In this document: positions 508 to 42,921 of the stretch, in pieces
How the letters are laid out: each line of letters opens with the position of its first letter
How positions within the stretch are numbered: the first letter of the stretch is position 1
IMG/VR virus record: IMGVR_UViG_3300033463_000305
Span: 1-42,921 of that record
Reading direction: 5' to 3' (one strand)
DNA from: a virus
DNA length: 42,921 nucleotides
Program-made: the position numbers and the translations under genes
Notes under the pieces: model-generated
Told to the model about the DNA's origin: nothing
The model's input: the letters and a program-made list of their open reading frames with translations, nothing else
Database searches by the model: none

Positions 508-586
508 TTCTCTGTCCTCCTGGCTCAAGGGTACGAAAAAAGACCGGACCGTGCCATAGCACGATCCGGTCACTTTCGTGTCAATT

Positions 587-10200: not shown

Positions 10201-11373
10201 GACCGTGAGGTCTACCACGCCTGCAATGCTGGCCTGATTCAGCAGAGTCGAAACCGCCGACATTCCCGCAGCGGCCAGCGGGGAGCTGTCCACGATCCCT
10301 GCAATATCCTTCTGACGCTGTTGGGCCTTTCTCTCATTGAGCAGATGCTTGATGGAGTTGATATACTCGGTTGCTGCTTTTTGGCCCTCGGTGTTCCACA
10401 GGTAGAAGAAAATCGACCTCTCATCGTCTTGGATGAAATTGTACGGGTCGTTGGAGATGCCCTCCACATTGTCGCCGCCCCGGCTGTATACGTTAGCATA
10501 CATCCGCTTTGCCGGATCAAACGACGCAGCTTTCCAACGCTTGGCGTCTGCCGCGTTTCCGCCGCTGCGCAGAAGGAAATCATCCCTCCCGCGCAGAGAG
10601 GCGTATTTCTGATACTGAAGATCGCTGGCCAGTTTGTTATACTGAGAGGCAGCCTCCTGTTCTGCTGCATGGGCGGCGCTGGACTCTTCCGTAGCCTGCT
10701 GGACCCATGCCTGAATGTCTGCATCATTGTCACTGTAGGGATTGCCGCCCTTTGCTGTGAGCGCAGCGCCCAGACGCAGGCTTGCACTCAGTGCGTTACC
10801 CTTCGCCTGGTCCAGTGCATCAGAGGCAGCTCTTACCTGGTCCTCCGTGGTGCCGGTGCGTGCAAGTCCGCTCGCCCGCTCATACGCGCCGTACATGTTG
10901 CGGTAAATCGGCTGAATAGCCCTCAGCTCCTGCTCGGCACGCCTTGCCGCCCGGGGATCGTCGCCCTGCATAACGTCGTGAAGATGGTTCACACGGCGCT
11001 GCACGGCGTCAAGATCGCCCTGAGCTTTGTCAATCGCGGCCTGCCGCGCTGTGTTCGCAGCGTTCTCGATCCAATTAACGGGCTGAGAAGCAGACCCTAT
11101 GCTCCCGGAAACATGCGAGGACGCAGACGGCCCCACGAAGTCTTCGTTCATCTTCGTGGGCGAAACAAGGAGAGACTGCTGCGCAGGCTGACGCTTGACG
11201 CTGCCCTGAATCTTGGTCTGTACCTGTTCCTGGGCCCGCTTCTCCTGCTTGGCCTGTTCCTTGATGAAGGCCAAGGCATCTGCTTTCCCGGCGTCTGCGG
11301 TGCCTTTAGCCTGGGATTTGATAAACGCGAGGGCGTCTTCCTTGCTGGTGTCAGTACTGGAAGTCTTCAACAC
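1258..11373 (-). CDS. Giant polyvalent virion protein (3,371 aa) with HExxH metallopeptidase-like and ART-PolyVal-like modules; putative ejected/internal protein
   Basis: Uninterrupted 10,116-nt ORF with GTG start at 11373 behind GGAAGGGGG. LDHEELHKL lies at nt 8539-8553. YLAAVESGDM..MVDEAAKQAGYTIKAYHGTTDDFTKF..GGGFYFTP lies at ~6049-6606. It has Gly/Met-rich and hydrophobic segments and sits after the tail genes. Confidence 0.85.
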   Translation of the reverse strand: MLKTSSTDTSKEDALAFIKSQAKGTADAGKADALAFIKEQAKQEKRAQEQVQTKIQGSVKRQPAQQSLLVSPTKMNEDFVGPSASSHVSGSIGSASQPVNWIENAANTARQAAIDKAQGDLDAVQRRVNHLHDVMQGDDPRAARRAEQELRAIQPIYRNMYGAYERASGLARTGTTEDQVRAASDALDQAKGNALSASLRLGAALTAKGGNPYSDNDADIQAWVQQATEESSAAHAAEQEAASQYNKLASDLQYQKYASLRGRDDFLLRSGGNAADAKRWKAASFDPAKRMYANVYSRGGDNVEGISNDPYNFIQDDERSIFFYLWNTEGQKAATEYINSIKHLLNERKAQQRQKDIAGIVDSSPLAAAGMSAVSTLLNQASIAGVVDLTVQNIRRMMGDNRPIDYNTPLQAPGQITQQIRSEVSKNLEERFPKAEIPGIVNLASFAYQTGMSLADSGTQLLLNRFGVPEPVTLSLMSGGAAQQAVYDAKERGASDGQALLTGYAAGIAEYAFEKISLDNLVGSIEAKAGETIGEKLTEKWVSKLAKKVGPWIINAGKQGLVEGSEEAFTTLANTVTDLMINGDKSELLKDIDEMGTGPALRKWITGLALDAMGGIISGVGMGMGGNVLRYAGGVAEDAASAARAAAEKESGQAHAETPTEPETRTAPPTPSESNPLAKALDKLRSGEQLTQNDARRIINDAASMQALRESGLIDTVRDDSAGRQQIRQAVESYARLNTNLLTQAQAQGNLETNTEEVVSNGRTIETSDRATAEAAGEQQPQTSFRERARAAAETQRSREILDRAERRSGLGRFLAEYRANRAQRSAETQFAQQNARANRLRDQAEARDLTFTSAAEQGIPGGTEDQTFQIMPTDMLDGAMRTAQQEAAKNGIDLQFMIGQGRVNDSSGDYNFRGWISADRKRMLIQADHSKLTWQQILDHEELHKLIKSAPGYRQAVEDALLSDARLQPYLSSIVDRYAEAYNSLGVTDENKIIEELLADYRAGFDMLDIARGRAGDVRTKATAKKDIRAAERRGVVPAKNNRGAQTQGSASTEITGNRFSMEMPAEETADLIAVHNLTERNLIDMGELGGAPAPSIAIVKADAGHTKYGPISLVYTKDTIDPQADRRNRVFGSDAWTPTSPTVGYKLDEKASKALRSRIENILGEDADVIKTYIDDDNLKDKLNRHNGDFATAYGNEDALKYAFLKEAGRLDRAPTKEKAYSQYMSNESLRELAAKYNVQELFSAGYDETMKIEPELREWLKRDYIQKTLAKGKADRATVERVADALYSKEQPYSKLNSILYAVLQMENDSSRAEVDTEALRTAIRQEFNTEGTEAEYRAWLNDLASGLVAKKGIRNQKDIYTSAGNRREWDSLYDPYTLENIVRAMASEPQRGASTWGVTAGSLQSVTTPEYRNVEEIRADRGRLGAIDQEEFEQLKKGLDARITDAVERIYSSTKHWSDNRFEEYDLLAAAIINAARGAKTESSITRSMSKDGYTIGKDIAQELRQLYRDAAQLPTEYFEAKPMRAVGFDEIAAAVVPSDISAQARKVLDDNGVNTLEYRSGDDADRLAKLNSIPDVKFSRELDRDYLAAVESGDMGTAQRMVDEAAKQAGYTIKAYHGTTDDFTKFSRGEQGRNHDGYLEFGGGFYFTPNENEAREWVRRGRSGLSGKAEPKVMSVYLSQRNIINADEPIPRGAEALQRMGMSKAEANFIAGRTYRFINYLAEDKGFSNTEIQDELKSLGYDAIDATYRNTASGQYVVFDPDQIKSADPVTYDDQGNVIPLSERFNAQDDDIRFSREIDPDTLRDLNEAEKNGDVIHLYRTMEVVEDEDGRKALRSPMADTVRRDPNAGKTPRTAGNIIFRSAPFGYVDENGDVYDVVDGEQTGASWIKADEHPETATMKPGAKWASTNIGKPVSGDNTGVAYNPYNHASNYVLNDQFKGAYERPNLVTVEVIVPRSEEDHPYHADMAKDPVGWADWKSGDVATALAKAGGEPRRLFLSRWMKVARVLSDAEVADRIVNHDLKGTGIKIPANTVTPSLREALREIDPDIISEPQNPKSYYAYQSKMPSGNTSREIDPQEIAKAEYLTEQRRTGRTGGRGRKRVSRVRTHAFELGGLYNEVEAQMAETQPGEFSYDPISEQKSMQNALGRLRRDFAGEVEKLSTADQWGGSDLDTAMGILHQYRQIGRETGDYSLFHEWSHVIQEKGTKGGQFVQAFAKYSRTATEQARKASERLRETAGKLTPAEQKRIQGHVSGILGAVDGAVEGAAKGAVEDTSGRKPRLPKEKKRSEQRARDAENVIRQIHRIFNQKYARDHGAPVDQWVKLTGDELADRISRRFDDPSNKERTTMQIILGDLMAFAEEHALPDRPEGQKPRTAVERITDYLNNREAYAQAWDEAKQVLRAMYAEDEERLAALDSFLNATITYNGGDMDQTMFRAILESADTLGLSKKDILNLAAAGVNESTINRIADEFAKQVGSDEVRDAVARHITNLVMEDDQAGRLGRMEQEAARELDQKLQSLLRESRKTKTDAANAIAQYLINDLGITGTDAAIAADYIAGDYMDRLAAAADKALRKMFEEKGERVKPAQRDKLLDLFRLGGLTNANVEDAVVDALGLGKLSRAEQRQIMDSMASFADTLDAMADDDLEGLRSLIRQQAAVRNTKLDRMAEKVLSGETDVEYLRNLAMAQLDLIAADYKPRTAGEKISTVQIISHLLNARTAMRNLTSNQVFDMVDSLANNVGLLPDIIMGAITGQRSVGLNKSWASQQKRQGALQGAGRNLLEIALDAAPNDRNQSKYGTGGRRTFAMASSGTVGKILSQAERILGYELNTTDEFHKGSVYGETMESLARFVDRGDMTVEQAAEFATDMALYRSFQDSTVIGSILGGLKDVLNIIGTGTTNGKTIKGLPVHDFGLGDLVVKYTQVPGALIHRAIEFSPVGYLKAIYNIAQLGNLKSKGESTLAKQRAAALSIGRATTGTGLITLFALLAKAGLLRRKDDEKDKNAAALRQSQGFNGTQLNVSALGRMLSGGSLDVQEGDVLADIGFLEPLDSLMTIAALAVNDPEIKAMDLYDMFRNLKTAGKMGEKSLQGIWLALEDTSAMQTLSNIYSTVRYHDEANDLPLYMQIPMEIAASSVSGFIPAPIRQIAQATDTVYRDQYRSQNLLEQTAAKVANAIPGVRQQLAPKLTPLGEEKAYQAPALNALNALLSPGNISVYHSTAVTDEFLRVYDETGEAKILPERNAPYSITINKEKYTLTPDERTQYQETRGKVTTQFADAVRKSKWYKALPADEQAEVLNWCGNFANYVAKTAFMTERGEEYTSKTYAKYYDEWQSGAIPADVAAKANKQNPDGTASRSVPTLNLPTA

Positions 11374-16183: not shown

Positions 16184-16456
16184 TCATTTCAGCCCGATCT
16201 TCACCGCGATGTACGCCAGCAGGGCCGTCACCACCCATGTCAGCACCTGCTGGCTGATGCTGTCCCACCTTCGGGCGGGCTTCATCCGCAGCTCCTGGAG
16301 GGTCTGGGACATCTCCCCAAGCTTGGTGTCGATCTGGTCCAGCCGCTGCCGCAGAAGCGCAAGGGCCACGTCCCCGTTGTGCAGCCGCTCCTCCGTGGCG
16401 TCCATCCTGCGCCGCAGCTCCTCGAACTCTCCCCGGGTCACGGTCTGCTCATTCAT
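16184..16456 (-). CDS. XhlA-like lysis-associated membrane protein
   Basis: 90 aa from the internal ATG at 16456, which overlaps the holin stop. It has a coiled-coil N-terminal part and a C-terminal TM helix (VLTWVVTALLAYIAVKIGL), as in PBSX XhlA. Confidence 0.5.
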   Translation of the reverse strand: MNEQTVTRGEFEELRRRMDATEERLHNGDVALALLRQRLDQIDTKLGEMSQTLQELRMKPARRWDSISQQVLTWVVTALLAYIAVKIGLK

Positions 16457-16646
16457 GCCTGTCCACCTCCGGCAGCCCCGTGGCAATGCTGGTGAGGATG
16501 CTCAGCACCCCCGCCAGGGCGGAGGCGGAGGCCACCACGGCCCAATTCACGTCGCTCAGCACGGCGCTGGTGCCGATGGTGGCGATGGCGGTCTGGGCGA
16601 TGGTCCGCAGAGCGCGGATCCCCGCCGCCCGGATAAACTGCTTCAT
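16449..16646 (-). CDS. Holin (two TM helices)
   Basis: 65 aa with an ATGA overlap onto the lysin stop. It has two hydrophobic helices (RTIAQTAIATIGTSAVL and WAVVASASALAGVLSILTSIATGL) and lies directly after the endolysin. Confidence 0.65.
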   Translation of the reverse strand: MKQFIRAAGIRALRTIAQTAIATIGTSAVLSDVNWAVVASASALAGVLSILTSIATGLPEVDRHE

Positions 16647-17314
16647 TTCAGATCCCCCTTTTCCTTCGCTGCGTTGTACCGCTGGAGCATCACGGCCAGC
16701 TCCTCCCGGGTGACGGGCTTTTCAGGCCGGAATGTCCCGTCCGGGTAGCCCTCCATGATCCCCGCGTCAATGGCCCACCGCATGGCCTGCTCAGACCACC
16801 GGCCTTCATAGTCCTTCGGCATAGGCTCATCCTTGTACTGCGGGCGGCACACGCCCACGATCTGCGACGGATAGCGGATCCTCAGCGCCACGCATCCGCC
16901 GTTGTTCTGGCTCCCCTCGTACCCCGTGGCAGTGTTTCCCTCGACGGTGTAGATAACGGTTCTCCCGTTCTGCACAGGCGTATCCTCCACCAGCCCGCAG
17001 TGCTCCGGCTCCGTCCCTCCGCGGAAGTTCAGCAGGAGGATATCCCCCGCCCGCACCTCCTCCGCCGGGACCGTCTGCCCCTGCTCCCTGTACCACCGGT
17101 ACAGCATCCCGCAGGAGGCGGTCTTGGCCCCGCCGAAAAACGCGGACCCTTCCCCCGCCTCCCGGAAGCACCACCAGAGGAAGGCCGCGCACCAGGGCTG
17201 CCCCTGCCACGCCGGATCATACGCTTCCCAGTACTTCGTCCGATTGCTCCCGGGCGGCGATTCCGTATACCCCAGCTCCCCCCGGGCGGTCTCCAGCACC
17301 TTGCTCAGGCTCAT
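16643..17314 (-). CDS. Endolysin: CHAP/NlpC-P60-type amidase/peptidase with C-terminal SLH domain
   Basis: The Cys in QPWCAAFLWWCF and the His in EHCGLVED fit a CHAP fold. The C-terminal AMRWAIDAGIMEGYPDGTFRPEKPVTREELAVML is a textbook S-layer-homology motif. Confidence 0.8.
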   Translation of the reverse strand: MSLSKVLETARGELGYTESPPGSNRTKYWEAYDPAWQGQPWCAAFLWWCFREAGEGSAFFGGAKTASCGMLYRWYREQGQTVPAEEVRAGDILLLNFRGGTEPEHCGLVEDTPVQNGRTVIYTVEGNTATGYEGSQNNGGCVALRIRYPSQIVGVCRPQYKDEPMPKDYEGRWSEQAMRWAIDAGIMEGYPDGTFRPEKPVTREELAVMLQRYNAAKEKGDLK

Positions 17315-19611: not shown

Positions 19612-20616
19612 TCAGCTCAGGTCGGTCGCGCCGGAGACGCCCGCGCAGGCGATCCCCCGCCAGTCGTGGAAGCCGGCGGTGAACCGGGCCCGGCCGCGCC
19701 ATACGTTGGCGTCCGTGTTGTCGTCGATCTTGGAGCTGACCTCCAGGGCCACACGGTCCAGCCAGATCAGGGTGCCGTACTCCTTGTTGTACCGGCTGTC
19801 CAGCAGCAGCCAGGGCGCGGTGCCGGAGCTGATGTACTGGTTCAGGTAGTTCCATACGATCACGTTCCAGCGCCCGAACTGGTAGTTGAAGGCGTTGTTG
19901 GCGGTGGTGGGCTCCTTGTCCGCACCGATGGCGGCGAACACGGCCTTTTTCAGGCTGTGGATGTTGGGGATGAGGATGGTGTCCGGGGCCACGTCCAGGA
20001 TCTCCCCATTGTCCCCCCGGGTGTTCTGCATCTTGGTCTCCAGCATCCCAAGGGCGTCGTCGGAGAAGGCGTCGGACCACAGATTGCACTGGGTTACGCC
20101 CTTCACCTTGCTGGGGTGTGAGGCGTAAAACAGGTTCTGCCCGTCCGCCCCCTTCAGGTCGAACTTGCCCCCCGCGAACTTCACGCTGCCGTTTCCCTGG
20201 ATGGCGTTCCCCAGCAGGGCCGCGCCGAACTTCTCCCGGGTGCGGTAATAGGCGGTGATGAAGGCCAGGGGCTTCTTCTTCAGGTCCATGAGCTGGCTGT
20301 CCTCGATGATCTTCTTGGAGATGGCGAAGGAGTCCTTCCACTCCACGCTCTCCATCACCTTGGAATAGCCCTCCTCCATGCCGTCCCGGGGATAGGCCCC
20401 GTTCTCCCCGGCAACCTGGAACCCGTCCATGGCGGTGAGGCTGGTGAACTTCTCTCCGAAGTGGGTGCTCTTCTCCATGCTGAACAGCTCCTTGATCACG
20501 CTGTTCTGCTCGAAGGACTCCCCCTTCTTCTCGACGAAGGACCGGATGGCGGCCTGGGACTTGCCGAAAATGCTGTCGGTAACGCCGCTGGCCTCAGAAA
20601 ATACGATACCTGCCAT
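19612..20616 (-). CDS. Major capsid protein (HK97-fold inferred)
   Basis: 334 aa with GGAAGGAGGAAG RBS. It follows the scaffold and a small accessory gene, and its size and position are typical of a capsid gene. Confidence 0.7.
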   Translation of the reverse strand: MAGIVFSEASGVTDSIFGKSQAAIRSFVEKKGESFEQNSVIKELFSMEKSTHFGEKFTSLTAMDGFQVAGENGAYPRDGMEEGYSKVMESVEWKDSFAISKKIIEDSQLMDLKKKPLAFITAYYRTREKFGAALLGNAIQGNGSVKFAGGKFDLKGADGQNLFYASHPSKVKGVTQCNLWSDAFSDDALGMLETKMQNTRGDNGEILDVAPDTILIPNIHSLKKAVFAAIGADKEPTTANNAFNYQFGRWNVIVWNYLNQYISSGTAPWLLLDSRYNKEYGTLIWLDRVALEVSSKIDDNTDANVWRGRARFTAGFHDWRGIACAGVSGATDLS

Positions 20617-22394: not shown

Positions 22395-24374
22395 TCAGGC
22401 CGTCGGCCTGGCTCTCCCCATCATGGCGTCCCGGCGGGCGTCCTCCATGGCGGCCCGCTGGGCCTCCAGCGCGGCCTGCTGTTCCGCCCGGCCCCGGTCA
22501 TAGTCCCGCTGCTCCGCCTCCAGGGCGGCCTGCCGCTGCTGGGCCTCCATGGCCGCCTGCTGCTGGGCGGCCTGCTCCTGCTGCATGGCCCGGATCCGCT
22601 GCTCCATGAATTCCCGGGCGTCGCTGGCGTTGGGATAGTGGAGCTTTTCCATCTCGGTCCAGTACATCAGGAGGGTCTGGGGATCCTGGGGACTCCCGAA
22701 GGCCCCCAGCTGGAGCATCTGCGTCATCTCCTGCCACATCTGGGGCCGGTTCGCCGCCAGGGGGGCGGAGGTGTCGCAGGAGAAGAGGAACCGGTCGTCG
22801 TCCAGGATGCAGTGCCATTTCCCCGCGGCGTCCCGCTCGTAGAAATCATACCGGCTGAACTCCTCGTACTGGGCCGCGCCCCGGTTGTCCTCCGCAACCA
22901 CGGGCCGGGGCTCGTCGGCGTAGGCTACCTTCAGCTGCACGATGCGCTTGAAGAGCTCCGCATACGCCGCCTCCTTCAGCACTCGCTTGCTTTCCAGCCT
23001 GCCCGCGCTCTGCTGGGCGGCAAACTGCTTTGCCACGCCGGACTGCGCAGTGGTGTCCCGCCGCCCCTGGAAGGAGTCCGTGATCCCCAGGGCCTGCCGC
23101 GCCTCCTCGTACACCTGGGCCAGATACGCCATCTCATACTGGAGGTCCCCGGAGAACTGAAACAGGCCGATGGCCGCCTTGTCCGCCGGATTCCCGATGA
23201 ACCACCGCTCCCCGTCCTCGGGATCGTTCCGGAAGTCCGCCCGGTCCGGCAGGGTGATCCGCGTCCCAGCCTTGATGAGCCGGTCGATCATCTTTGTCTC
23301 CATGCGGGAAACCGTGTTCTGCTGGTCCTCGATCTTGTCCACATCCGAATCCCCCAGGAGCTGCCCGAAGAGGGATACGTTCCGCTGGAGGAACACGGGG
23401 AAGCAGTCCGGGTGATAATACGGCAGCTCCGCGGGCTGGATCCGCACCACGGGCCCCGCCGGGGTCTCCTGCATCACCGGCTGCCCGCCGATCTGCTCCC
23501 CCAGGGGCGTGGTGATGGGGGAAATGATCTCCTCCACTTCCTCCGCCCGCTCCGTAAGCCGCCCCCCGCACTCCGGACAGGTTTTTACGCTCCTGTCCGG
23601 CTCGGGCCTGCCGCATTGCTCGCAGCGCCGGAGCTTCCGGGCGGCGTAGTCCTCCAGGTCCTCCAGCACCGTGTCGTTCACCCAGGAGAGCTTGCCGATC
23701 TTCCCGCACTCGCCCCGGTAGTACACCACGTACTGGGTGACCAGGTCTTCCGCCTCGGCGGCCTCGCTGCCCAGGGTCCGGACCTCGGGTTTTTCCTCCC
23801 CCTCGTCCACGTCCTTCCCATACCGGGCCTTGATCCCCGCCCTGGTCTGGGGCAGCCGCAGGGCAATGGCGTCCATATCCTCCACCCGCCCGAATACCCC
23901 GTTCTGGGGGATCACCTGCTTGGGGTGCAGCAGCGTTACCGCCACGTCCCCCACGGTGCTGTGGGTCCTGGCGGAGTTGTCCCATTCCACCAGCCAGAAG
24001 GCCCCGCCCTGGATGGGGATGGTCCGTTCCGCCTGGTCGTTCAGCTCCTCCATGGGCAGCCGGTCCAGCTCGTTCCGGAGCATATCCTCCAGGATCTTCG
24101 CCCGCCCTTCGTCCGCCTTCCGCCGGGCGGTCACCTTGGGCTGCGGAATCACGCTGTTTACCTCGCTCTCGATATTCTCCGCAATGATGTTCCGCAGGTG
24201 GGCGGTCTTGCGATAGCTCCCGTCCTTGGCCCTGTCCTTGGCGGTGAGGGGCTCGATCTCCCGCACCTCTCCCCGGTACAGCGCCTCCCGGTGATCCATC
24301 CGGGAAAGCTGATCCCCATAGGCGCTCTCCTGCCGGGATACCCAGTCCTGCCAGTATGTCAGATCGTGCTTCAT
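22395..24374 (-). CDS. Portal protein with inserted CxxC..CxxC zinc ribbon
   Basis: 659 aa located downstream of the terminase genes, separated from terL by two small ORFs (24718..25071 and 24371..24721). The C-terminal tail is Q/A-rich and helical. CEQCGRPEPDRSVKTCPECGG spans residues 251-270. Confidence 0.75.
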   Translation of the reverse strand: MKHDLTYWQDWVSRQESAYGDQLSRMDHREALYRGEVREIEPLTAKDRAKDGSYRKTAHLRNIIAENIESEVNSVIPQPKVTARRKADEGRAKILEDMLRNELDRLPMEELNDQAERTIPIQGGAFWLVEWDNSARTHSTVGDVAVTLLHPKQVIPQNGVFGRVEDMDAIALRLPQTRAGIKARYGKDVDEGEEKPEVRTLGSEAAEAEDLVTQYVVYYRGECGKIGKLSWVNDTVLEDLEDYAARKLRRCEQCGRPEPDRSVKTCPECGGRLTERAEEVEEIISPITTPLGEQIGGQPVMQETPAGPVVRIQPAELPYYHPDCFPVFLQRNVSLFGQLLGDSDVDKIEDQQNTVSRMETKMIDRLIKAGTRITLPDRADFRNDPEDGERWFIGNPADKAAIGLFQFSGDLQYEMAYLAQVYEEARQALGITDSFQGRRDTTAQSGVAKQFAAQQSAGRLESKRVLKEAAYAELFKRIVQLKVAYADEPRPVVAEDNRGAAQYEEFSRYDFYERDAAGKWHCILDDDRFLFSCDTSAPLAANRPQMWQEMTQMLQLGAFGSPQDPQTLLMYWTEMEKLHYPNASDAREFMEQRIRAMQQEQAAQQQAAMEAQQRQAALEAEQRDYDRGRAEQQAALEAQRAAMEDARRDAMMGRARPTA

Positions 24375-24721
24375 GCTCTCTTTGCCTCCACCAGCGCCCT
24401 GGCCAGATCGTCCAGGATCATATGCGACACCCGCTCCAGCATGGCGTCTCCCTCGAAATACAGTGACATTTTGAGATGCATGAGCTCATGCACCAGGGTC
24501 TTTTCTGCATCGTAGGGAATCACCCGCTCGCCGTAGAATATGGGATCGATCAGCTCAATCCTTGCGGTCTTGGAACTCTCCTGATAATCCACGCACCCGT
24601 CCGCTTCCGGGTCCGCCATATTCTCCGGTCTGCAATTGGTCAGCAGCTTGATCCTCCAGCTTTGCAGGCCCAACCTTTCCTTCCACTCGATCAGCAGCTT
24701 CTGCAGCTCCTCGTCCGTCAT
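24371..24721 (-). CDS. Small HExxH-motif protein (putative zincin-like)
   Basis: 116 aa with ATGA overlaps at both ends. It carries the motif TLVHELMHLK. Confidence 0.55.
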   Translation of the reverse strand: MTDEELQKLLIEWKERLGLQSWRIKLLTNCRPENMADPEADGCVDYQESSKTARIELIDPIFYGERVIPYDAEKTLVHELMHLKMSLYFEGDAMLERVSHMILDDLARALVEAKRA

Positions 24722-25071
24722 GCTCTTTTTGCCTCCCTGCTAAGCAGCCCAATTGCGGCCTCAACATGCCACAGAGCCTCATCATCCTGCTCCCTTGCTC
24801 GGCAGCGCAGTCTGTCCCGGACGATCTCCAGCAGATCAGCGTCGGTCATGCCCAGTCCTGTGCCGTGCTCCATGAGCACCACGACCCCGCCGCCGGTGTC
24901 TCTCTGCTGGACGAGATATCTGTACCAGATACCGTCTTGCCCTGGGGATCGCCAGCGGAAAATATCATTGTGGCTCCTGCTCATTGTTACAAGCTGATCT
25001 CCGCGGAGTTTTTCGATTATTTTTGATTTTTGCTGCTCCGTCTTTTCCCCCGTCAATTCGGCGCCCCCCAT
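24718..25071 (-). CDS. Hypothetical protein (117 aa; start uncertain)
   Basis: The in-frame ATG at 25071 overlaps the terL end. The longer 25140 start would lie deep inside terL. Confidence 0.45.
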   Translation of the reverse strand: MGGAELTGEKTEQQKSKIIEKLRGDQLVTMSRSHNDIFRWRSPGQDGIWYRYLVQQRDTGGGVVVLMEHGTGLGMTDADLLEIVRDRLRCRAREQDDEALWHVEAAIGLLSREAKRA

Positions 25072-26561
25072 TTCTCCGCCATCCGCGCCCGGTCCTCCGG
25101 GCCCGCGGCGTAGTAGTCCTCCAGCATGTCCTCCGTCCATTCCCGCTTCATCGGCGCGGCCTCCGCCTCCACCGTCATCCGCTGCTGCGGCCGGATGTAC
25201 CAGGCGATGGCCAGCGCCATCACGCAGTCGTCGTGCGCCCCCGGCTCCGCCGCCGGCCGCATCTTTTCATCCCGCACAAAGGTGAGCATCTCCTCCAGGG
25301 TCGGGCGGTGGTTTACGCTCCCCAGGGCCTCCCGCATGGCCTCCACCAGCCCGGAGATCATCACGGGCCGGGTCACCGCCGTGGTCCGCACGCCGTAGGC
25401 CTGCCGGATCGCCCCCGTGAAGGTATCCTCCGCCTCCCGGACGTACTGCCGCGGGTACCCCAGCTCCTCCAGCCGCTTTGTGGGGTAGGAGGAGAAGTTG
25501 GCCTCAATGCCGATGAGCGCGTCGTTGTAGTACCGCCCCAGGCAGTACGCCTGCTTGGCGTAGGTGTCCTCGTCGTATTGGTGCCGCAGCACCGCCACCT
25601 GTGCCCCTGTGCGGTTGTCCAGCACCTGGGCAACGAACCAGTCCGACCCGGCCCCCGCGGTGTCCCCGCCGATCACGTAGGGCACACCGTCCTCCGGCTC
25701 CCGGAAGATCTGGATGGGCCCGCCCTCCTCTGTCTGCCACGCCCATTCCGTGATCCGCGCCCGGGGATCCTCCGCCGTCCCCGGGGCCTCCCGGTAGGTG
25801 AAGAACCCCTCCCGCTCCGGCGCGGGGATCTGCTGCAAGCGCTCCCCCACCGCCTGGGCGTTGAAGATCGTCTTCCCCGTGACCCCCCACTCCCCCAGGC
25901 AGTACACCTGGTAATAGTATGGGTCCGTGTCCCGGAATCCCTCCAGGGTGGCGATTGCCTCTGCGTCAAGGAATCGGTTGTCCTTGTATGTGCTCCGGTG
26001 CGTCCGCGCCCGGGGGTCCGGCTCATCGAAGAACCGCCGCTTCAGCCAGTGGGTGATGCTGATGGGGTTAAAGCTGAGAATGATCTGTTTATAGTACCGG
26101 GTCTCCCCCCGGAGGCGGATATCGAGCTGATTGAAATCGGCCTCGGTGAGCTCGGACGCCTCCTCGATCCAGATGCCCGTGATGTTGTAGATACTCTTCA
26201 GCTTCTCCACATCGTCCAGCCCAGCGAAAAGGATGAGGCTGCCGTTGGGAAAGCGTATCTCCAGCTCCCCGGAGAGTATCCGCGCCCCTGCGTCCGGGTA
26301 ATGCTCCGCGATCTGGCCACGGAGCTGGGCAAAGCAGGAGTCCGCCAGGGTCCGGGCCACCTTCCGGCACACCAGCCAGCGGTGCCCGGGCTCACTCGTC
26401 ACACGCTCCAGGACCTTCCGCCCGGCGAAAATGCTCTTGCCGGACCCGCCACCCCCGCAGAGGACCAAATATCGGTGGTCGTCCTCGTATAGTCTCCAAA
26501 ATGCCGTGTTAGTGGACGCCCGCAGAGCCACCCAGCGGCGCATGATCTCCGCATCACTCAT
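25053..26561 (-). CDS. terL: Terminase large subunit
   Basis: 502 aa with Walker A LCGGGGSGKS near the N-terminus and acidic nuclease-half motifs. It follows the small subunit with an 8-nt overlap. Confidence 0.9.
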   Translation of the reverse strand: MSDAEIMRRWVALRASTNTAFWRLYEDDHRYLVLCGGGGSGKSIFAGRKVLERVTSEPGHRWLVCRKVARTLADSCFAQLRGQIAEHYPDAGARILSGELEIRFPNGSLILFAGLDDVEKLKSIYNITGIWIEEASELTEADFNQLDIRLRGETRYYKQIILSFNPISITHWLKRRFFDEPDPRARTHRSTYKDNRFLDAEAIATLEGFRDTDPYYYQVYCLGEWGVTGKTIFNAQAVGERLQQIPAPEREGFFTYREAPGTAEDPRARITEWAWQTEEGGPIQIFREPEDGVPYVIGGDTAGAGSDWFVAQVLDNRTGAQVAVLRHQYDEDTYAKQAYCLGRYYNDALIGIEANFSSYPTKRLEELGYPRQYVREAEDTFTGAIRQAYGVRTTAVTRPVMISGLVEAMREALGSVNHRPTLEEMLTFVRDEKMRPAAEPGAHDDCVMALAIAWYIRPQQRMTVEAEAAPMKREWTEDMLEDYYAAGPEDRARMAEKWGAPN

Positions 26562-26934
26562 CGGTCCCCAGGAGTTCCCGCGCCCTGGCCATCATCTCCG
26601 CTAGAGTGACGGGCTCCTCCTCCTGGTGTACGTCGGCCACAATCGGCTGCGCGGCCTTGCCCAACAGCCTGTCCAGCACAATCTCCGCCGCCCGGAGTTT
26701 GTCCCCTTGTCTGGCATCAGGATCGTCCAGGATTGCTTGGAGGGCGGACACCGCCTTGTCGCCCAGCGGCAGGAGCGCGTCCTTGAGATTGGACGGGAGT
26801 TTCGGCCTCCCGTTTCCCGCGTTGTTGCCCTTTGTAAACCGCCCCGTCTTGGCGTCGCGTTTGCCGTTAAAGGGCCGTTTATTCGGCGCAGGAGCAGAGG
26901 CGGCAACTCCGCCGCTCTTATCGTCCAGCATCAT
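26554..26934 (-). CDS. terS: Terminase small subunit (putative)
   Basis: GGAGG lies 5 nt upstream of the ATG at 26934. The basic motif GRFTKGNNAGNGRPK is typical of small-terminase-like proteins. It is the first gene after the late promoter. Confidence 0.6.
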   Translation of the reverse strand: MMLDDKSGGVAASAPAPNKRPFNGKRDAKTGRFTKGNNAGNGRPKLPSNLKDALLPLGDKAVSALQAILDDPDARQGDKLRAAEIVLDRLLGKAAQPIVADVHQEEEPVTLAEMMARARELLGTDE

Positions 26935-26982
26935 CACCGCCTCCTATCTGTAATGTTACATACGTTCCACTCATCCGATATG

Positions 26983-27011
26983 ATTATATCGAACAGATGT
27001 TCGCTTGTCAA
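26983..27011 (-). promoter_or_regulatory. Consensus sigma-A/sigma-70 promoter for the packaging/virion operon
   Basis: The - strand reads TTGACA (27011-27006), a 17-nt spacer, then TATAAT (26988-26983). It lies ~45 nt upstream of terS in the only sizeable gap between the early and late genes. Confidence 0.7.
26990..27003. promoter_or_regulatory. LexA (Cheo/SOS) box inside the promoter spacer
   Basis: CGAACAGATGTTCG is a perfect CGAAC-N4-GTTCG palindrome. It fits the Bacillus-type consensus CGAACRNRYGTTYC at 13 of 14 positions. Confidence 0.6.
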
Positions 27012-27053
27012 CGGCCGGCAACGTGGTCTGGTCGGCTCCGCATTCCGGGCACC

Positions 27054-27959
27054 TCATGATCTCCTCCTATACTCAGCATATGAGCAGGCCTTAAATACGC
27101 TCTTTCGGTTTACCCACCGCGCAAAGCTGATTTGCTCGGCGCTCGGGTATCCTCCATCATAATCCCGGTATGGCTGTGCAAACGGCTGTACCCCCATTGC
27201 GTCCAGGGCCAAAGCCCGCCGCTCCGCCTCCTCCACGTCCTGGACAAGCATATAGGCCCAAAACCTCGACGGCGCGATGCCTGCCTCTTTCATGTACGCG
27301 GTGGCCTGCTCGATCACGGGGAGCATTTCCTCGGTGTCGCATGACAGGCGGACAAACCTGATCCAATGCAATCTGGACAGGAGCGCCGCGTTTTCCGGGG
27401 TGATGAGGCGGGCGTCCAATCCCTGGTTGAAATCCACCCAGACGGCCTCGCCGCCCATGTCCTCGATCTGCCGAATGCCGTGGTCACAGGCCAGGACGTT
27501 GTTGTCCATGAAAACGATGTTTCGGCTGTCCGGGCGCTTGATGTCCCGCCAGGTGGCCGCCGGCCTGATCTTGCCCTCCTTTTTCGGGACGATGCACCAC
27601 GGGCAGGCCCTGATGCAGCCGCGGGTCAAAAATCCGATGGCGTAATCCACGCCGGGGTATATCGAATAGTCCGGGGGTGTGACCTCAATCTCAGGCGGAA
27701 GGCTGCCGTAGTCCTTGTACCCGGTGCCGCCCCTGATGATTTCGTCGGCATAAATCACGGTGTCGATGTCCGGGGAAAACGTGAAAACCTTGCTCATGTA
27801 GACCCGGTCGTAACGGTTGAAGCCGATCCACCATTCCACGGCGTCTCCCTGGGCCTTGTGCCATGCCGCGATCCGCATGAGGGCCAAATTCGGGAACGTG
27901 TCGCCGCGGCGCCGGTACCTGGCGTGGTAGCCGTCCACGTCAATCAGGCCGATCTTCAT
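27054..27959 (-). CDS. Radical SAM enzyme (phage family, function unknown)
   Basis: 301 aa with the CxxxCxxC cluster motif GCIRACPWC (nt 27594-27617). The N-terminal MKIGLIDVDG...FPNLALMRIAAWHK pattern is recalled from phage radical SAM proteins. Confidence 0.75.
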   Translation of the reverse strand: MKIGLIDVDGYHARYRRRGDTFPNLALMRIAAWHKAQGDAVEWWIGFNRYDRVYMSKVFTFSPDIDTVIYADEIIRGGTGYKDYGSLPPEIEVTPPDYSIYPGVDYAIGFLTRGCIRACPWCIVPKKEGKIRPAATWRDIKRPDSRNIVFMDNNVLACDHGIRQIEDMGGEAVWVDFNQGLDARLITPENAALLSRLHWIRFVRLSCDTEEMLPVIEQATAYMKEAGIAPSRFWAYMLVQDVEEAERRALALDAMGVQPFAQPYRDYDGGYPSAEQISFARWVNRKSVFKACSYAEYRRRS

Positions 27960-28914
27960 TCCGTCCCTCTTTCCTGCCCAAAGTCTTTCCCCATCGTTGC
28001 TTATATTCCTTCGGCGGTGTTCTCCTGGGAAACAGGGTTAGCTGCTCATGCTGGTGTCTCTCCCGGTACCGTGGCCCATCCCAGGATGGCTTGCCGCACT
28101 TGGCGGCCTCCAGTTCCCACCCCGCAGCTTTCAGGCTTGTCCCCGGCTCACTTTCCAGGATGAAGGTGATGATTCTGCTGTACCCTTCCTTTCGCGCTCT
28201 CCTGGCCGCCGCCCCGTAGAGGCATGAGCAAGCGTTCCGTGTCCCGTCGCTGCATAGCCTGGTAATCTCCAGTGTGTGTCCGTCGTCCAATCTCCTGCCT
28301 ACCGGGCGGCCAACGATGCACACGCCACATAGCTCCCCGTTTTTATAGGCTCCCAGGCTCCACTTGTGCCCACGCGCCGCGTCATGGTGCCGGTGGTACT
28401 GGATGACGAAGGCATTAGCCTCATGCAGAGAGATTTCCTGAACCTTCATTTTTCCATTTCCTCCATCGTCATCTGCTCCATTGATCCTCATGGCTCGAAG
28501 CCCTCCATGACGATCTGCAATTACCGTCCGTTGCCCTGCCGGATCATACCTCTCTCCGATGCCCCGACCATACGGGGGATTGCACCACACCACTTCACCC
28601 GCCCAGGGTTGGGCCAGACCATCATCTTCCGGGGAAAAGTATCTGGTGCACTTCGCATTGCTCTCTGTGGCGCAGGCGTCCAGGGAAAAGTGGAATATGG
28701 CGTCCAGCCGGTTGAATAGCTCCGGTGGCGTCTCCCAATCCTGCCGGATGCTCGTCAACATACCTTTGTTCACGGGTAATACCTCCTCCTCCGGCTCCGG
28801 CTTGCCCTCCAGGCGGCACTCCGCAGCACTCGCCGGGGAACAGCAGATTACGATAATCACGATCACGACTAGGCAGATAATCATGAGGCCAGTCCACGGG
28901 TTATCATCCATCAT
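27940..28914 (-). CDS. Composite ORF: TM peptide + N-terminal fragment of Dam-type N6-adenine methyltransferase + GNAT-fold (XF1762/Mom-like) module
   Basis: 324 aa in one frame. Residues 7-25 are hydrophobic. Residues 52-120 (DWETPPELF..SLDACA..NPPYGRGIG) match the front half of phage Dam enzymes only. Residues 156-324 start at their own ATG (28449) behind GGAGGAAATGGAAAA and carry HEANAFVIQYHRHH..GVCIVGRPVGRRLDDGHTLEITRLC..NACSCLYG. Confidence 0.65.
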   Translation of the reverse strand: MMDDNPWTGLMIICLVVIVIIVICCSPASAAECRLEGKPEPEEEVLPVNKGMLTSIRQDWETPPELFNRLDAIFHFSLDACATESNAKCTRYFSPEDDGLAQPWAGEVVWCNPPYGRGIGERYDPAGQRTVIADRHGGLRAMRINGADDDGGNGKMKVQEISLHEANAFVIQYHRHHDAARGHKWSLGAYKNGELCGVCIVGRPVGRRLDDGHTLEITRLCSDGTRNACSCLYGAAARRARKEGYSRIITFILESEPGTSLKAAGWELEAAKCGKPSWDGPRYRERHQHEQLTLFPRRTPPKEYKQRWGKTLGRKEGRNEDRPD

Positions 28915-37620: not shown

Positions 37621-37639
37621 GGTTTGTCAAGGACAAACC
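37621..37639. promoter_or_regulatory. Operator-like palindrome O1
   Basis: GGTTTGTCAAGGACAAACC has 8-bp arms. It shares the core TTTGTCAAGNACAAA with O2 and lies in the leader just upstream of the first early RBS. Confidence 0.55.
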
Positions 37640-37730: not shown

Positions 37731-37759
37731 AAAATAACAGTTACTAGATATTTTGTCAA
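37731..37759 (-). promoter_or_regulatory. Leftward early promoter (candidate)
   Basis: The - strand reads TTGACA (37759-37754), 17 nt, then TGtTATTTT (extended -10; hexamer at 37736-37731). Confidence 0.5.
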
Positions 37760-37766
37760 GCACAAA
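37752..37766. promoter_or_regulatory. Operator-like palindrome O2
   Basis: TTTGTCAAGCACAAA overlaps the -35 of the leftward promoter. It is bracketed by the 9-bp inverted repeat ACAGTTACT (37737-37745) / AGTAACTGT (37771-37779). Confidence 0.55.
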
Positions 37767-38464: not shown

Positions 38465-38677
38465 TTATTGTCTCTCACTTACCCAACGCAGGGTCCGCGC
38501 CAGCCCGTCCTCCGTCCCCCGCAGGTCAGGCCCCCTCCGGGAGGGGGCTCCGGCGCAGCCGGTGGGGGAGAATGTGCCGGCCTCCCGCAAAAACGCCGCC
38601 ACGAAAACCAGCGCCCCATACTCCGCCCGCTCCAGCAGTCCCCCGATCTCCTCCATGATTTCCTTCCGGTTTTTCAT
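38465..38677 (-). CDS. Small hypothetical protein (70 aa) divergent from the integrase gene
   Basis: GGAGGACAGAAAAC precedes the ATG at 38677 (MKNRKEIMEEIGGLLERAEYG...). It is the only credible part of the 487-aa antisense ORF 38465..39928. Confidence 0.5.
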   Translation of the reverse strand: MKNRKEIMEEIGGLLERAEYGALVFVAAFLREAGTFSPTGCAGAPSRRGPDLRGTEDGLARTLRWVSERQ

Positions 38678-38761
38678 GTTTTCTGTCCTCCATCGTTGAT
38701 AATTGTTTCTCTCTGTTATATTATGGAGGCAATGAAAAATCTGTCGGAAGGTGGTTACAAT

Positions 38762-39955
38762 ATGGGAACCCAATGCAGAGCGCAGGAGCTGGATGCCATG
38801 ACCTGCCCGAAGTGTTCCCGCCCGCTCCCGGAGCTGGAGGATCTGCTGTACTGCCCCTTCTGCGGTCGGAAGCTGGTGCGGGAGTATGGCCGCCGCCGCC
38901 GCGGCAATGGCCAGGGCACCGCCCGGAAGCGGGGCAGCACATGGACAGGCTATGCCGCCGGGTACTCCTGGGTGGACGAGTCCGGCAAGCGGCACACCGT
39001 CCGTCCCAGCAAAGGCGGTTTTCGAACCAAGTCCGACGCCCTGGCCTGGGCCGCCCAGAACAACCCCGCCGCTCAGGAGGCCCCCATTCCCAGGCTTGTG
39101 GATCTCTGGACCGGGTATCGGGATAACGAGCTTCCCAAGCTCAGCGCGGACAAGCAGACCGCTTACAAGGCCGCCGCCCGCCGGCTGAAGCCCATCATGG
39201 GCCGCACCGTGGACAGTCTCACCGTGGACGACCTCCAGGCGGTGATCAACACCGTCAGCACCTATTACCCCGCCCGGGATATCAAGACGGTGCTCTCCCA
39301 TTGCTATCTCCGGGCCATGGCCAGCAATGCCAACCGGGGCCGGATCACCCAGAATCTGAGCGAGTTCGTCACTCTCCCGAAGCTGGAGGAGAGGGAGGCC
39401 GCCGTCTTTACCTCCCAGGAGGTCAAGCAGCTCTGGACCCTGTATGAGGCCGGGGACGTGTTCACCGGGTACATCTTGCTCATGATCTATACCGGCATGA
39501 TGCCCGCGGAGCTCCTGTCCTGCCGGAGGGACCAGATCGACCTGGACCGCTGCGAGATCCGAGGTGCCGGCGCAAAGACGGCAGCCCGCAAGGCCGCCGT
39601 GATCGTCTTCCCGCCTTATATCCGCCCCGTCCTGGAGGATCTGCTTGCCGTTGAGGTCAAAAATTGCCGCAGCACCGGGGAAAAATTGCTCAGCATGAAT
39701 AAATGGACTTTTTACGACCGCTTCCGGGAGACCTTGTCCAAGGCAGGGATCGAAAATGAAAAGGGCGAGAACGGCAAATACCGCCTCACCCCATACGCCT
39801 GCCGCCACACCTTCGGCACCGAGGCTGTCCGCCAGGAGCTGCACCCGGAGATGATCAAGCGTCTCCTGCGCCACAGCTCCACCCGGACCCAAGAGAAGTA
39901 TACCCACCTGGGAGCCAAGGACCTCCACGCCGCCGCCGACGCCCTCCCGAAATAG
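38762..39955 (+). CDS. int: Tyrosine integrase with N-terminal zinc ribbon and AP2-like arm-binding domain
   Basis: The ATG at 38762 is 7 nt after GAAGGTGG. It contains CPKCS..CPFCG, then GSTWTGYAAGYSWVDESGKRHTV..FRTKSDALAW. Catalytic-type residues are seen in ..PAELLSCRRDQID.., ..CRHTFGT.. and ..LLRHSSTRTQEKYTH. Confidence 0.85.
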   Translation: MGTQCRAQELDAMTCPKCSRPLPELEDLLYCPFCGRKLVREYGRRRRGNGQGTARKRGSTWTGYAAGYSWVDESGKRHTVRPSKGGFRTKSDALAWAAQNNPAAQEAPIPRLVDLWTGYRDNELPKLSADKQTAYKAAARRLKPIMGRTVDSLTVDDLQAVINTVSTYYPARDIKTVLSHCYLRAMASNANRGRITQNLSEFVTLPKLEEREAAVFTSQEVKQLWTLYEAGDVFTGYILLMIYTGMMPAELLSCRRDQIDLDRCEIRGAGAKTAARKAAVIVFPPYIRPVLEDLLAVEVKNCRSTGEKLLSMNKWTFYDRFRETLSKAGIENEKGENGKYRLTPYACRHTFGTEAVRQELHPEMIKRLLRHSSTRTQEKYTHLGAKDLHAAADALPK

Positions 39956-42436: not shown

Positions 42437-42827
42437 GATCTTCTCCCTTCTTCAGCATTGCCGAGATCAGGGCCTCCAGTTCGTCCTTCCGCACGTACTC
42501 TGCCGGGTTCAGCGTCGGCGCGGGCGGGGCCGGATGGCGCTTGTCGTAGTATTCCAGGTCGTATTTTCCGTCCTGGTGCTGGGTTTTGACGATAATGTGC
42601 TGCTCGTCCCGGGTGATGAACATCTGAGACGCGCCCGCCGCCAGGGGATACCTGGCCACTTCGTCCTCACCTCCCGCCTGGATGATCTCCGCGTGGATCG
42701 TGGGCGGCGTCATGGGCTGCTGCTGGGGCTGCTGTTGATACTGCTGGGCCGTATACTGCGGATACTGCTGCATGTACGGGTTATATCCCCCGTAGGTCGC
42801 CGGAAACGGATAGTTCGGAAACGGCAT
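42423..42827 (-). CDS. Hypothetical protein with Q/P/Y-rich N-terminus (134 aa)
   Basis: The internal ATG at 42827 lies behind CAGGAGGGGATAAAT. The start falls inside the terminal repeat, immediately after the stop of the 36..416 gene in the circular map. The globular part IIQAGGEDEVARYPLAAGASQMFITRDEQHIIVK is recalled from Firmicutes prophages. Confidence 0.55.
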   Translation of the reverse strand: MPFPNYPFPATYGGYNPYMQQYPQYTAQQYQQQPQQQPMTPPTIHAEIIQAGGEDEVARYPLAAGASQMFITRDEQHIIVKTQHQDGKYDLEYYDKRHPAPPAPTLNPAEYVRKDELEALISAMLKKGEDHEPV

Positions 42828-42921
42828 ATTTATCCCCTCCTGCTGAAAAAGTATGTCGGTACGGTCTGTCCGGAGTCGAAGGTATCCCACCAATCGCCGT
42901 CTATCACGGCGACGGCGTGCT
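42795..42921. repeat. Terminal direct repeat, copy 2 (identical to 1..127)
   Basis: Same 127-nt string as nt 1-127. This length equals a common assembler k-mer, so it is most simply a circular-contig overlap. Confidence 0.95.

Follow-up and report, generated by a model that had tools for sequence, protein, structure and literature searches.

The IMG/VR virus record IMGVR_UViG_3300033463_000305, analysed here over its whole length of 42,921 nucleotides (nt) and referred to as the window, is the genome of a temperate phage, tailed and integrating. Nucleotides 1-127 are an exact repeat of 42795-42921, so the window is a complete circular assembly of a genome of approximately 42,794 bp, and motif counts made in it are counts for the whole phage genome. 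Its base composition is 60.9% GC, and it contains no tRNA gene. On the - strand, the early genes encode recombination and replication functions (an exonuclease, a RecT-like protein and a replication initiator), a Dam/Mom fusion and a radical SAM protein. The packaging and virion genes follow on the same strand: a TerS-like gene, TerL, two small genes, portal, head, holin and endolysin, an internal virion protein and a 3371-aa protein. Between the two groups, at 27011..26983 on the - strand, lies a perfect consensus promoter with a LexA-type palindrome in its spacer. This element is very probably a LexA-repressed promoter of the late operon, as judged from the sequence comparisons described below.

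The element reads TTGACA-agCGAACATCTGTTCGa-TATAAT, within the fuller - strand stretch ccgTTGACAagCGAACATCTGTTCGaTATAATcat (Table 1). Its hexamers match the sigma-A/sigma-70 consensus at 12 of 12 positions and are separated by 17 nt, where 17 +/- 1 nt is allowed. The palindrome CGAAC-N4-GTTCG, which includes the LexA core GAAC-N4-GTTC, lies wholly inside the spacer and overlaps the core promoter. A preliminary description of this DNA had reported the perfect hexamers, the 17-nt spacing and the palindrome in the spacer, and each was confirmed at its exact coordinates, as was the position of the element at the early/late boundary, between the end of the radical SAM gene at 27054 and the start of the TerS-like gene at 26934. 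No other 12/12 promoter is present in 20-40 kb, and a scan of 1-20 kb revealed no near-consensus promoter on the - strand. When the box scan of the whole genome suggested in that description was run, it returned one full box, as compared to 0.05 expected from shuffled sequences, and a single perfect core; no second LexA site with up to one mismatch was found close to the palindrome. From base composition, 6.5e-4 perfect promoters with 17-nt spacing are expected per genome, and 7.6e-10 that contain the box in the same register. Chance occurrence of the boxed promoter was ruled out by the shuffle count and by this expectation.

Table 1. Features of the window that bear on the boxed promoter, its operon and the lysogeny switch.
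Feature	Position	Strand	Remarks
-35 hexamer TTGACA	27006..27011	-	perfect; same in L094, L095 and L236
Candidate LexA (Cheo-type) operator CGAACATCTGTTCG	26990..27003	-	perfect CGAAC-N4-GTTCG, wholly inside the 17-nt spacer
-10 hexamer TATAAT	26983..26988	-	perfect
Predicted 5' leader of terS	26935..26976	-	start near 26976 inferred from the -10 position
TerS-like gene, 126 aa	26554..26934	-	first in operon; 3' end overlaps TerL start
TerL, PBSX/Terminase_3 type	25053..26561	-	Pfam and PHROG
112-aa gene between TerL and portal	24718..25056	-	no family found
116-aa HExxH protein, putative small zincin	24371..24721	-	weak SprT-like similarity
Portal, P22_portal	22395..24374	-	Pfam
Major head protein	19612..20616	-	annotation
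Endolysin	16643..17314	-	in the same co-directional array
Holin	16449..16646	-	in the same co-directional array
Terminator-like hairpin, strong	542..571	-	13-bp stem, then T6; probable end of late unit
Radical SAM gene, phrog_9298	27054..27959	-	last early/DNA-modification gene; outside promoter module
28-codon open reading frame MRCPECGADQTTLPAVDKRTSVRYNHIG (MRCPECGADQ...)	26971..27057	-	starts on the radical SAM stop (ATGA) behind AGGAGG
CI-like repressor, 139 aa	37836 (or 37839)..38255	+	HTH_3 only, no Peptidase_S24
Early (lytic) promoter TTGACA-17-TATTTT with TG	37731..37759	-	divergent from repressor; operator overlaps
Palindrome TTTGTC-N3-GACAAA, two copies	37623-37637, 37752-37766		switch region only
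Tyrosine integrase	38468..39955	+	Pfam and PHROG annotation

The predicted terS leader carries the Shine-Dalgarno sequence AGGAGG at 26945..26940. RNA folding of the region from the radical SAM gene to terS, including the leader, was not significant (z = -0.69), and no Rfam family was matched there. The late unit probably extends over ~26 kb and finishes at the terminator-like hairpin. Between terS and this hairpin we found no other near-consensus promoter on the - strand, and the holin and endolysin genes lie inside that array.

To define which genes carry this arrangement in bacteria, the exact pattern TTGACA-N2-CGAAC-N4-GTTCG-N-TATAAT was sought in bacterial genomes, one from each species. 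For each match, the first downstream open reading frame (ORF) preceded by a ribosome-binding site was clustered, and cluster representatives were analysed with Pfam. The exact architecture was found in at least 120 genome contigs, mostly from Clostridia, Anaerolineae and Actinomycetota. Among the matches listed, to which the counts that follow refer, the Clostridia included Lachnospiraceae, Oscillospiraceae and Acutalibacteraceae, with many metagenome-assembled genomes (MAGs) from ruminants or gut. The first downstream gene encoded a LysM membrane protein (YneA-like) in 20 cases, LexA itself (LexA_DNA_bind plus Peptidase_S24) in 16, an IMS Y-family polymerase in 7 and a radical SAM plus HHH repair protein in 4; smaller clusters comprised DUF222-HNH, DUF6504, FtsK-like, TetR and WYL proteins. 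At 16 of the 20 LysM loci a LexA-like gene lay in divergent orientation at a distance of 89-182 bp, as in the classical lexA-yneA organisation of Firmicutes. Altogether, a LexA-like gene was present on the fetched stretch at 38 loci, mostly adjoining the motif. The LexA consensus of Bacillus subtilis is CGAACATATGTTCG (PMC8270828), and searches of clostridial regulons use GAAC-N4-GTTC/T (PMC4234289). The downstream SOS genes, together with this published consensus, indicate that the 29-bp architecture is the standard SOS promoter of these phyla.

Five of the motif-bearing contigs (L154, L158, L164, L171 and L115; contigs are referred to by our own locus numbers) were labelled Bacteroidota (Muribaculaceae, Bacteroides or Porphyromonadaceae), yet carry the Firmicutes-type box. 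One published account describes the LexA of Bacteroidetes as non-canonical (PMC8565304). These may be mis-binned contigs or mobile elements.

Relatives of the phage allowed the terS promoter to be compared between lineages. Three metagenome contigs that are ~99.99% identical to the window have the same junction. In L094 and L095, whose TerS is 84% identical to that of the window, ccgTTGACAAGCGAACATATGTTCGATATAAT is followed by the same leader and preceded by unrelated DNA upstream of the -35 hexamer: a methylase gene and then an intergenic region in L094, and an opposite-strand gene in L095. Both contain the exact B. subtilis consensus. In L236 (TerL 81% identical), TTGACAATCGAACATTTGTTCGATATAAT stands behind three opposite-strand genes. 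L237 and L238 (TerL 76%) carry TAGACA-g-CGAACATATGTTTG-gtg-TATAAT, in which the register of the box is shifted, and their surroundings cannot be aligned with the window. By these comparisons, a putative LexA-boxed terS promoter is present in at least four sequence-distinct lineages, namely the window with its three near-identical contigs, L094/L095, L236 and L237/238. A TerS pattern scan of IMG/VR found no relatives. At 80 IMG/VR loci with relatives of the radical SAM gene, none had the box downstream, and the downstream genes varied; since this gene belongs to a mosaic early module, its relatives are uninformative on the junction.

The comparison of the window with L236 bears on selection. 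The 29-bp core is identical at 27 of 29 positions, with both changes at unconstrained positions, while the adjoining leader is 68.6% identical. At the divergence of the leader, the probability of no change at the 22 constrained positions is ~2.5e-4. A conserved core beside a diverged leader thus suggests that the core has been under selection. The corresponding identity between the window and L094 (97.5% over promoter and leader versus 84.6% over terS) was not taken as a sign of selection, since terS aligns in a mosaic fashion. The genes that precede terS in L095 and L236 run on the other strand; read-through from them is therefore impossible, and the boxed promoter would be the only route into terS. 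If so, removal of LexA would be obligatory for particle production in these two phages. The comparative evidence supports the central proposal of the preliminary description, that the packaging/virion operon has a LexA-boxed sigma-A promoter. Its further suggestion, that host LexA may serve the phage as damage sensor where others rely on repressor cleavage or an antirepressor, reaches further than these comparisons.

Other relatives have terS promoters of a different kind. L225 has TTGACA-18-TATAAT and L229 has TTGCAA-17-TATAAT with TG, both without the box. There is no box upstream of terS in L092/93, in L226-228 or in the distant L216-L224; distant metagenomic relatives of terS (33-52% identity) all lack it. 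In L239 (1192-2514) and L240 (1175-2497), whose TerL is 75-77% identical, a helix-turn-helix (HTH) repressor gene and a Cro-like gene lie directly upstream of terS-terL-portal, a host phosphomutase gene adjoins, and no early replication module intervenes. It appears to be typical of this clade that the terS operon is served by a strong promoter of its own, on which a repressor acts directly; in at least four lineages this repressor would be LexA. Promoter, leader and terS seem to move between phages as one recombination module.

Upstream of terS, L095, L236, L225, L227/L228 and L229 also have a divergent promoter on the other strand, TTGACA-17-TATACT/TATAAT, with an A6T6 tract before it. The spacer of this promoter holds a perfect palindrome that differs from phage to phage, as in TGGGGGTGCCCCCA or CACGCA-N-TGCGTG, and looks like a phage-specific operator for the small opposite-strand genes. 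In L216 (~2230-2400) and L217 (~1780-1940), a 15-17-nt motif (ctgcaaaattWgcagt in L216 and ccccaaccattgggg in L217) is directly repeated, in five copies, just upstream of the distant terS homologues; a late activator, or TerS (pac), might bind to these repeats.

At the upstream side of the element, homology between the window and L094 begins 3 nt before the -35 hexamer. A 28-codon ORF, missed in the preliminary description, reads through the promoter and contains half of a zinc-ribbon signature, CPxCG. It is probably the truncated remnant of a gene, left at the recombination joint of the early module and the promoter-terS module. Directly upstream of the radical SAM gene, a 324-aa ORF (27940-28914, - strand) combines a hydrophobic N-terminus, a partial Dam-type methyltransferase and a Mom-like domain, and represents an unusual DNA-modification module.

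At the other end of the early region, the CI-like repressor is encoded on the + strand, divergently from the early promoter. Pfam and PHROG analyses bore out the earlier statement that it lacks an S24 domain. One copy of the palindrome TTTGTC-N3-GACAAA lies over the -35 hexamer of the early promoter and the other within the early leader. These copies are probably the operators of the S24-less repressor, and as such candidate sites they are unrelated in sequence to the LexA box. No late activator, antirepressor or ImmA-type gene was recognised among the early genes or elsewhere in the genome.

The first gene of the late operon was itself without a Pfam or PHROG match. Some homologues of the TerS-like protein carry PF18932/DUF5681, and its best matches in a profile search of the PDB were small terminases, with weak E-values of 0.06 and 0.12. 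The 116-aa protein encoded between TerL and portal is a member of an unannotated family, more than 400 strong, in which HExxH is invariant. Its AlphaFold model is confident (pLDDT, the predicted local distance difference test score, of 94), while Foldseek found no significant neighbour and the best E-value of a sequence search of the PDB was 0.09; homologues in other phages occur at unrelated genomic positions. We considered this protein as an SOS-induced repressor protease of the ImmA/IrrE type, but found this unsupported, as there was no M78 signal and the SprT-like matches were below threshold. In L236, the gap between TerL and portal holds a gene (3962-4357) of the Acb2/Tad1-hairpin, anti-defence sponge type, and a Tad2-like gene (3600-3884) is present in the early region of L092. 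Accessory genes seem to be accommodated in this gap, and the 112-aa and 116-aa genes of the window (24371-25056), which lie in the same slot, could be anti-defence candidates. Further along the virion module, after the homologue of the internal virion protein, a single 3371-aa ORF (1258-11373, - strand; phrog_22978) is found in a phage whose portal is of the P22 type.

The TerL of the nearest cultured phage is 48% identical over half of its length. A tblastx comparison of the phage with the motif-bearing bacterial contigs found no related contig, and one TerL relative with a Firmicutes MAG label is the sole clue to the host, which would be an uncultured gut or rumen bacterium.

Together, these observations led us to propose, at a probability of roughly three in four, that the element is a sigma-A promoter with a LexA operator in its spacer, which heads the ~26-kb late unit and is derepressed in the SOS response without need of a phage activator. 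In the undamaged lysogen, a LexA dimer on CGAACATCTGTTCG would block RNA polymerase at a promoter of maximal strength, and the lethal packaging and lysis genes would remain silent. Upon DNA damage, RecA-stimulated self-cleavage of LexA would free the promoter, and the ~26-kb late unit, including holin and endolysin, would be transcribed without a phage-encoded activator. The packaging, virion and lysis genes would thus probably respond to DNA damage directly. The sequences themselves establish the anatomy of the element, its uniqueness, its identity with the promoters of genuine SOS genes, its conservation where neighbouring DNA has diverged, and its distinctness from the candidate CI operators; the binding of LexA, the start site, inducibility by damage and coordination with the inactivation of CI are inferred from them.

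Several observations weigh against this proposal. The match between the box and the host's own SOS boxes holds only at the level of class or phylum. The box is missing in most terS relatives (L092/93, L225-L229, L239/240 and L216-L224), and this virion module can therefore do without it. Part of the conservation could come from recent mosaic exchange and not from selection; the last 150 nt of terS, for example, show 100% identity between the window and L094. In the window, the early operon is co-directional into terS, and no terminator is predicted between the radical SAM stop and terS, so that read-through from the early operon is possible as a second source of late transcripts. Finally, to fire the late genes under continued repression of excision and replication by CI would be unproductive, and nothing was found to link them to the inactivation of CI.

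In another explanation, the boxed promoter might be regulated by LexA but be meant as the trigger of induction, such that one of the first small products of the operon inactivates the CI-like repressor, in the manner of Tum of coliphage 186 or the Gifsy antirepressors, and control of the virion genes is a by-product. Candidates would be the TerS-like, 112-aa and 116-aa HExxH proteins. Such a function would fit a repressor without S24 in a genome where no antirepressor or ImmA-type gene was recognised elsewhere, where the LexA box is the only one, and where two small genes, one of them HExxH-invariant, lie between TerL and portal. However, the first gene overlaps TerL and has small terminases as its best, if weak, profile matches, and the HExxH family has sub-threshold similarity to SprT, no Peptidase_M78/ImmA signal and no significant structural neighbour. 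This family occurs at unrelated genomic positions in other phages, and the presence of the Acb2/Tad1-type gene in the gap of L236 suggests an accessory slot. We thus regard a trigger function as distinctly unlikely. It is also conceivable, although still more improbable in our view, that the element is a hitch-hiking or recently captured fragment of an SOS promoter with little role, the late genes being transcribed mainly by read-through from the early promoter and the box simply tolerated. The lack of the box in most relatives, the truncated ORF at the recombination joint and the missing terminator between the radical SAM gene and terS are consistent with this explanation. Against it, a perfect promoter in a 61% GC genome would, unless repressed, constitutively drive holin and endolysin; the element has been kept in four lineages across different breakpoints, with its constrained positions intact while the leader diverged; and read-through is impossible in L095 and L236.

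In a third alternative, the likeness of the palindrome to a Cheo box is a coincidence, and the site serves some regulator other than LexA, phage-encoded or not, given that L095, L236, L225, L227 and L229 carry phage-specific palindromes in the spacers of their divergent promoters. We consider this extremely improbable, since exactly this architecture is found before lexA and core SOS genes in many genomes and also occurs in unrelated phages with different repressors, and the candidate CI operators of the window differ from it in sequence. Phage repressors usually have several sites, and the LexA-like box is single-copy.

A stronger form of the proposed LexA control, which we put forward tentatively and think unlikely to hold, is that LexA is the sole gatekeeper of late expression and replaces a phage late activator. 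This might work in either of two ways. The phage exonuclease, RecT-like protein and replication initiator could create the RecA signal that removes LexA, which would then act as an early-to-late timer. Alternatively, SOS induction of a lysogen could directly set off the terminase, virion and lysis genes while the prophage is still integrated, whether or not excision follows, and the outcome would be in-situ headful packaging, with lateral transduction or behaviour like that of a gene transfer agent or PBSX.

Compared with known systems, the element is identical in its 29-bp architecture to chromosomal SOS promoters of Firmicutes and Chloroflexi (lexA, yneA, dinB/IMS and the repair radical SAM gene). 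These promoters drive genes of repair, mutagenesis and cell division, whereas the cargo in the window is a ~26-kb packaging, virion and lysis operon. In the p95-tum system of coliphage 186 and in Gifsy, a LexA-controlled promoter drives one small antirepressor, and the repressor is not self-cleaving. The window is similar in being a prophage genome with a non-self-cleaving repressor and a LexA-boxed promoter as its probable SOS link, but the operon opens with the TerS-like gene and TerL, and no gene could be identified as an antirepressor. The PBSX-like layout of L239/L240 shares a homologous TerL and a terS operon under its own strong sigma-A promoter and direct repressor control, which there is exerted by an adjacent switch of the Xre/CI-Cro type and not by LexA.

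Among phages, 13 IMG/VR contigs carried the boxed architecture when the hexamers were relaxed, mostly at the lysogeny switch or before early genes. In L001-L004, L006-L008, L231, L233 and L235, from uncultured Firmicutes phages, the boxed promoter is located at the switch or before early, replication or regulator genes. The exception is L005 (4344-9431), which is unrelated and has 45% GC: here, TTGACAATCGAACACATGTTCGTTATAAT lies immediately before two short ORFs, with the portal and major head genes after them. It appears to be an independent LexA-boxed promoter before virion genes and, apart from the window lineage, the only such case among the 13 contigs. In the phage and prophage loci L001, L003, L006, L115 and L147, the boxed promoter and a conserved leader of ~110-130 nt precede a four-cysteine zinc-ribbon protein of 55-56 aa (MHEVHVACPCCKNKRLFD...), which is followed by replication genes. 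This protein may be an SOS-controlled early regulator.

The closest functional precedent is the late promoter P3 of GIL01, a tectivirus of Bacillus thuringiensis, at which host LexA, aided by gp7, represses through a pair of high-affinity boxes, while activation depends on gp6 (Fornelos et al. 2018, PMC6182141). P3 drives genes for virion maturation and lysis and is induced by DNA damage (PMC6182141). As in P3, the LexA box of the window is found within the late promoter of a temperate phage. In contrast to the tailed phage of the window, which has an integrase and its own CI-like repressor, GIL01 is linear and non-integrating and has no CI-type repressor. Its P3 is a weak promoter with two tandem boxes downstream of the -35 hexamer and requires gp6, a LexA homologue, as its activator; it also uses the small corepressor gp7. 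In the window, one box fills the spacer of a perfect promoter, and such a promoter should work without an activator. Nothing like gp6 or gp7 in function was recognised in the window: LexA_DNA_bind was absent from the subset of proteins scanned with Pfam, and homology to gp7 was not searched. By analogy with the argument made for P3, the near-consensus operator would be a site of high affinity that is derepressed late. The preliminary description had called LexA control of a terminase/virion promoter an unusual wiring; with P3 (PMC6182141) and L005 as precedents, it is less unusual than that. LexA control of a late promoter has already been published for P3, and the window represents a variation on this design and not a new principle.

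If the proposal is correct, this would be a tractable case of a tailed, integrating temperate phage that leaves the control of packaging, virion and lysis functions altogether to a host repressor via one 14-bp site, and the GIL01 paradigm would reach beyond tectiviruses. Several lineages of uncultured Bacillota phages from gut or rumen would have acquired this design and retained it, where their sisters have a CI/Cro switch or an unboxed strong promoter in the corresponding position. Such control would be relevant to the mobilisation of gut prophages by antibiotics and other SOS inducers, to the uncoupling of late firing from excision, with its consequences for transduction, and to predicting the inducibility of prophages from sequence alone. 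Used as a simple query, the 29-bp signature finds both SOS regulon promoters and SOS-wired phage promoters in Clostridia, Chloroflexota and Actinomycetota.

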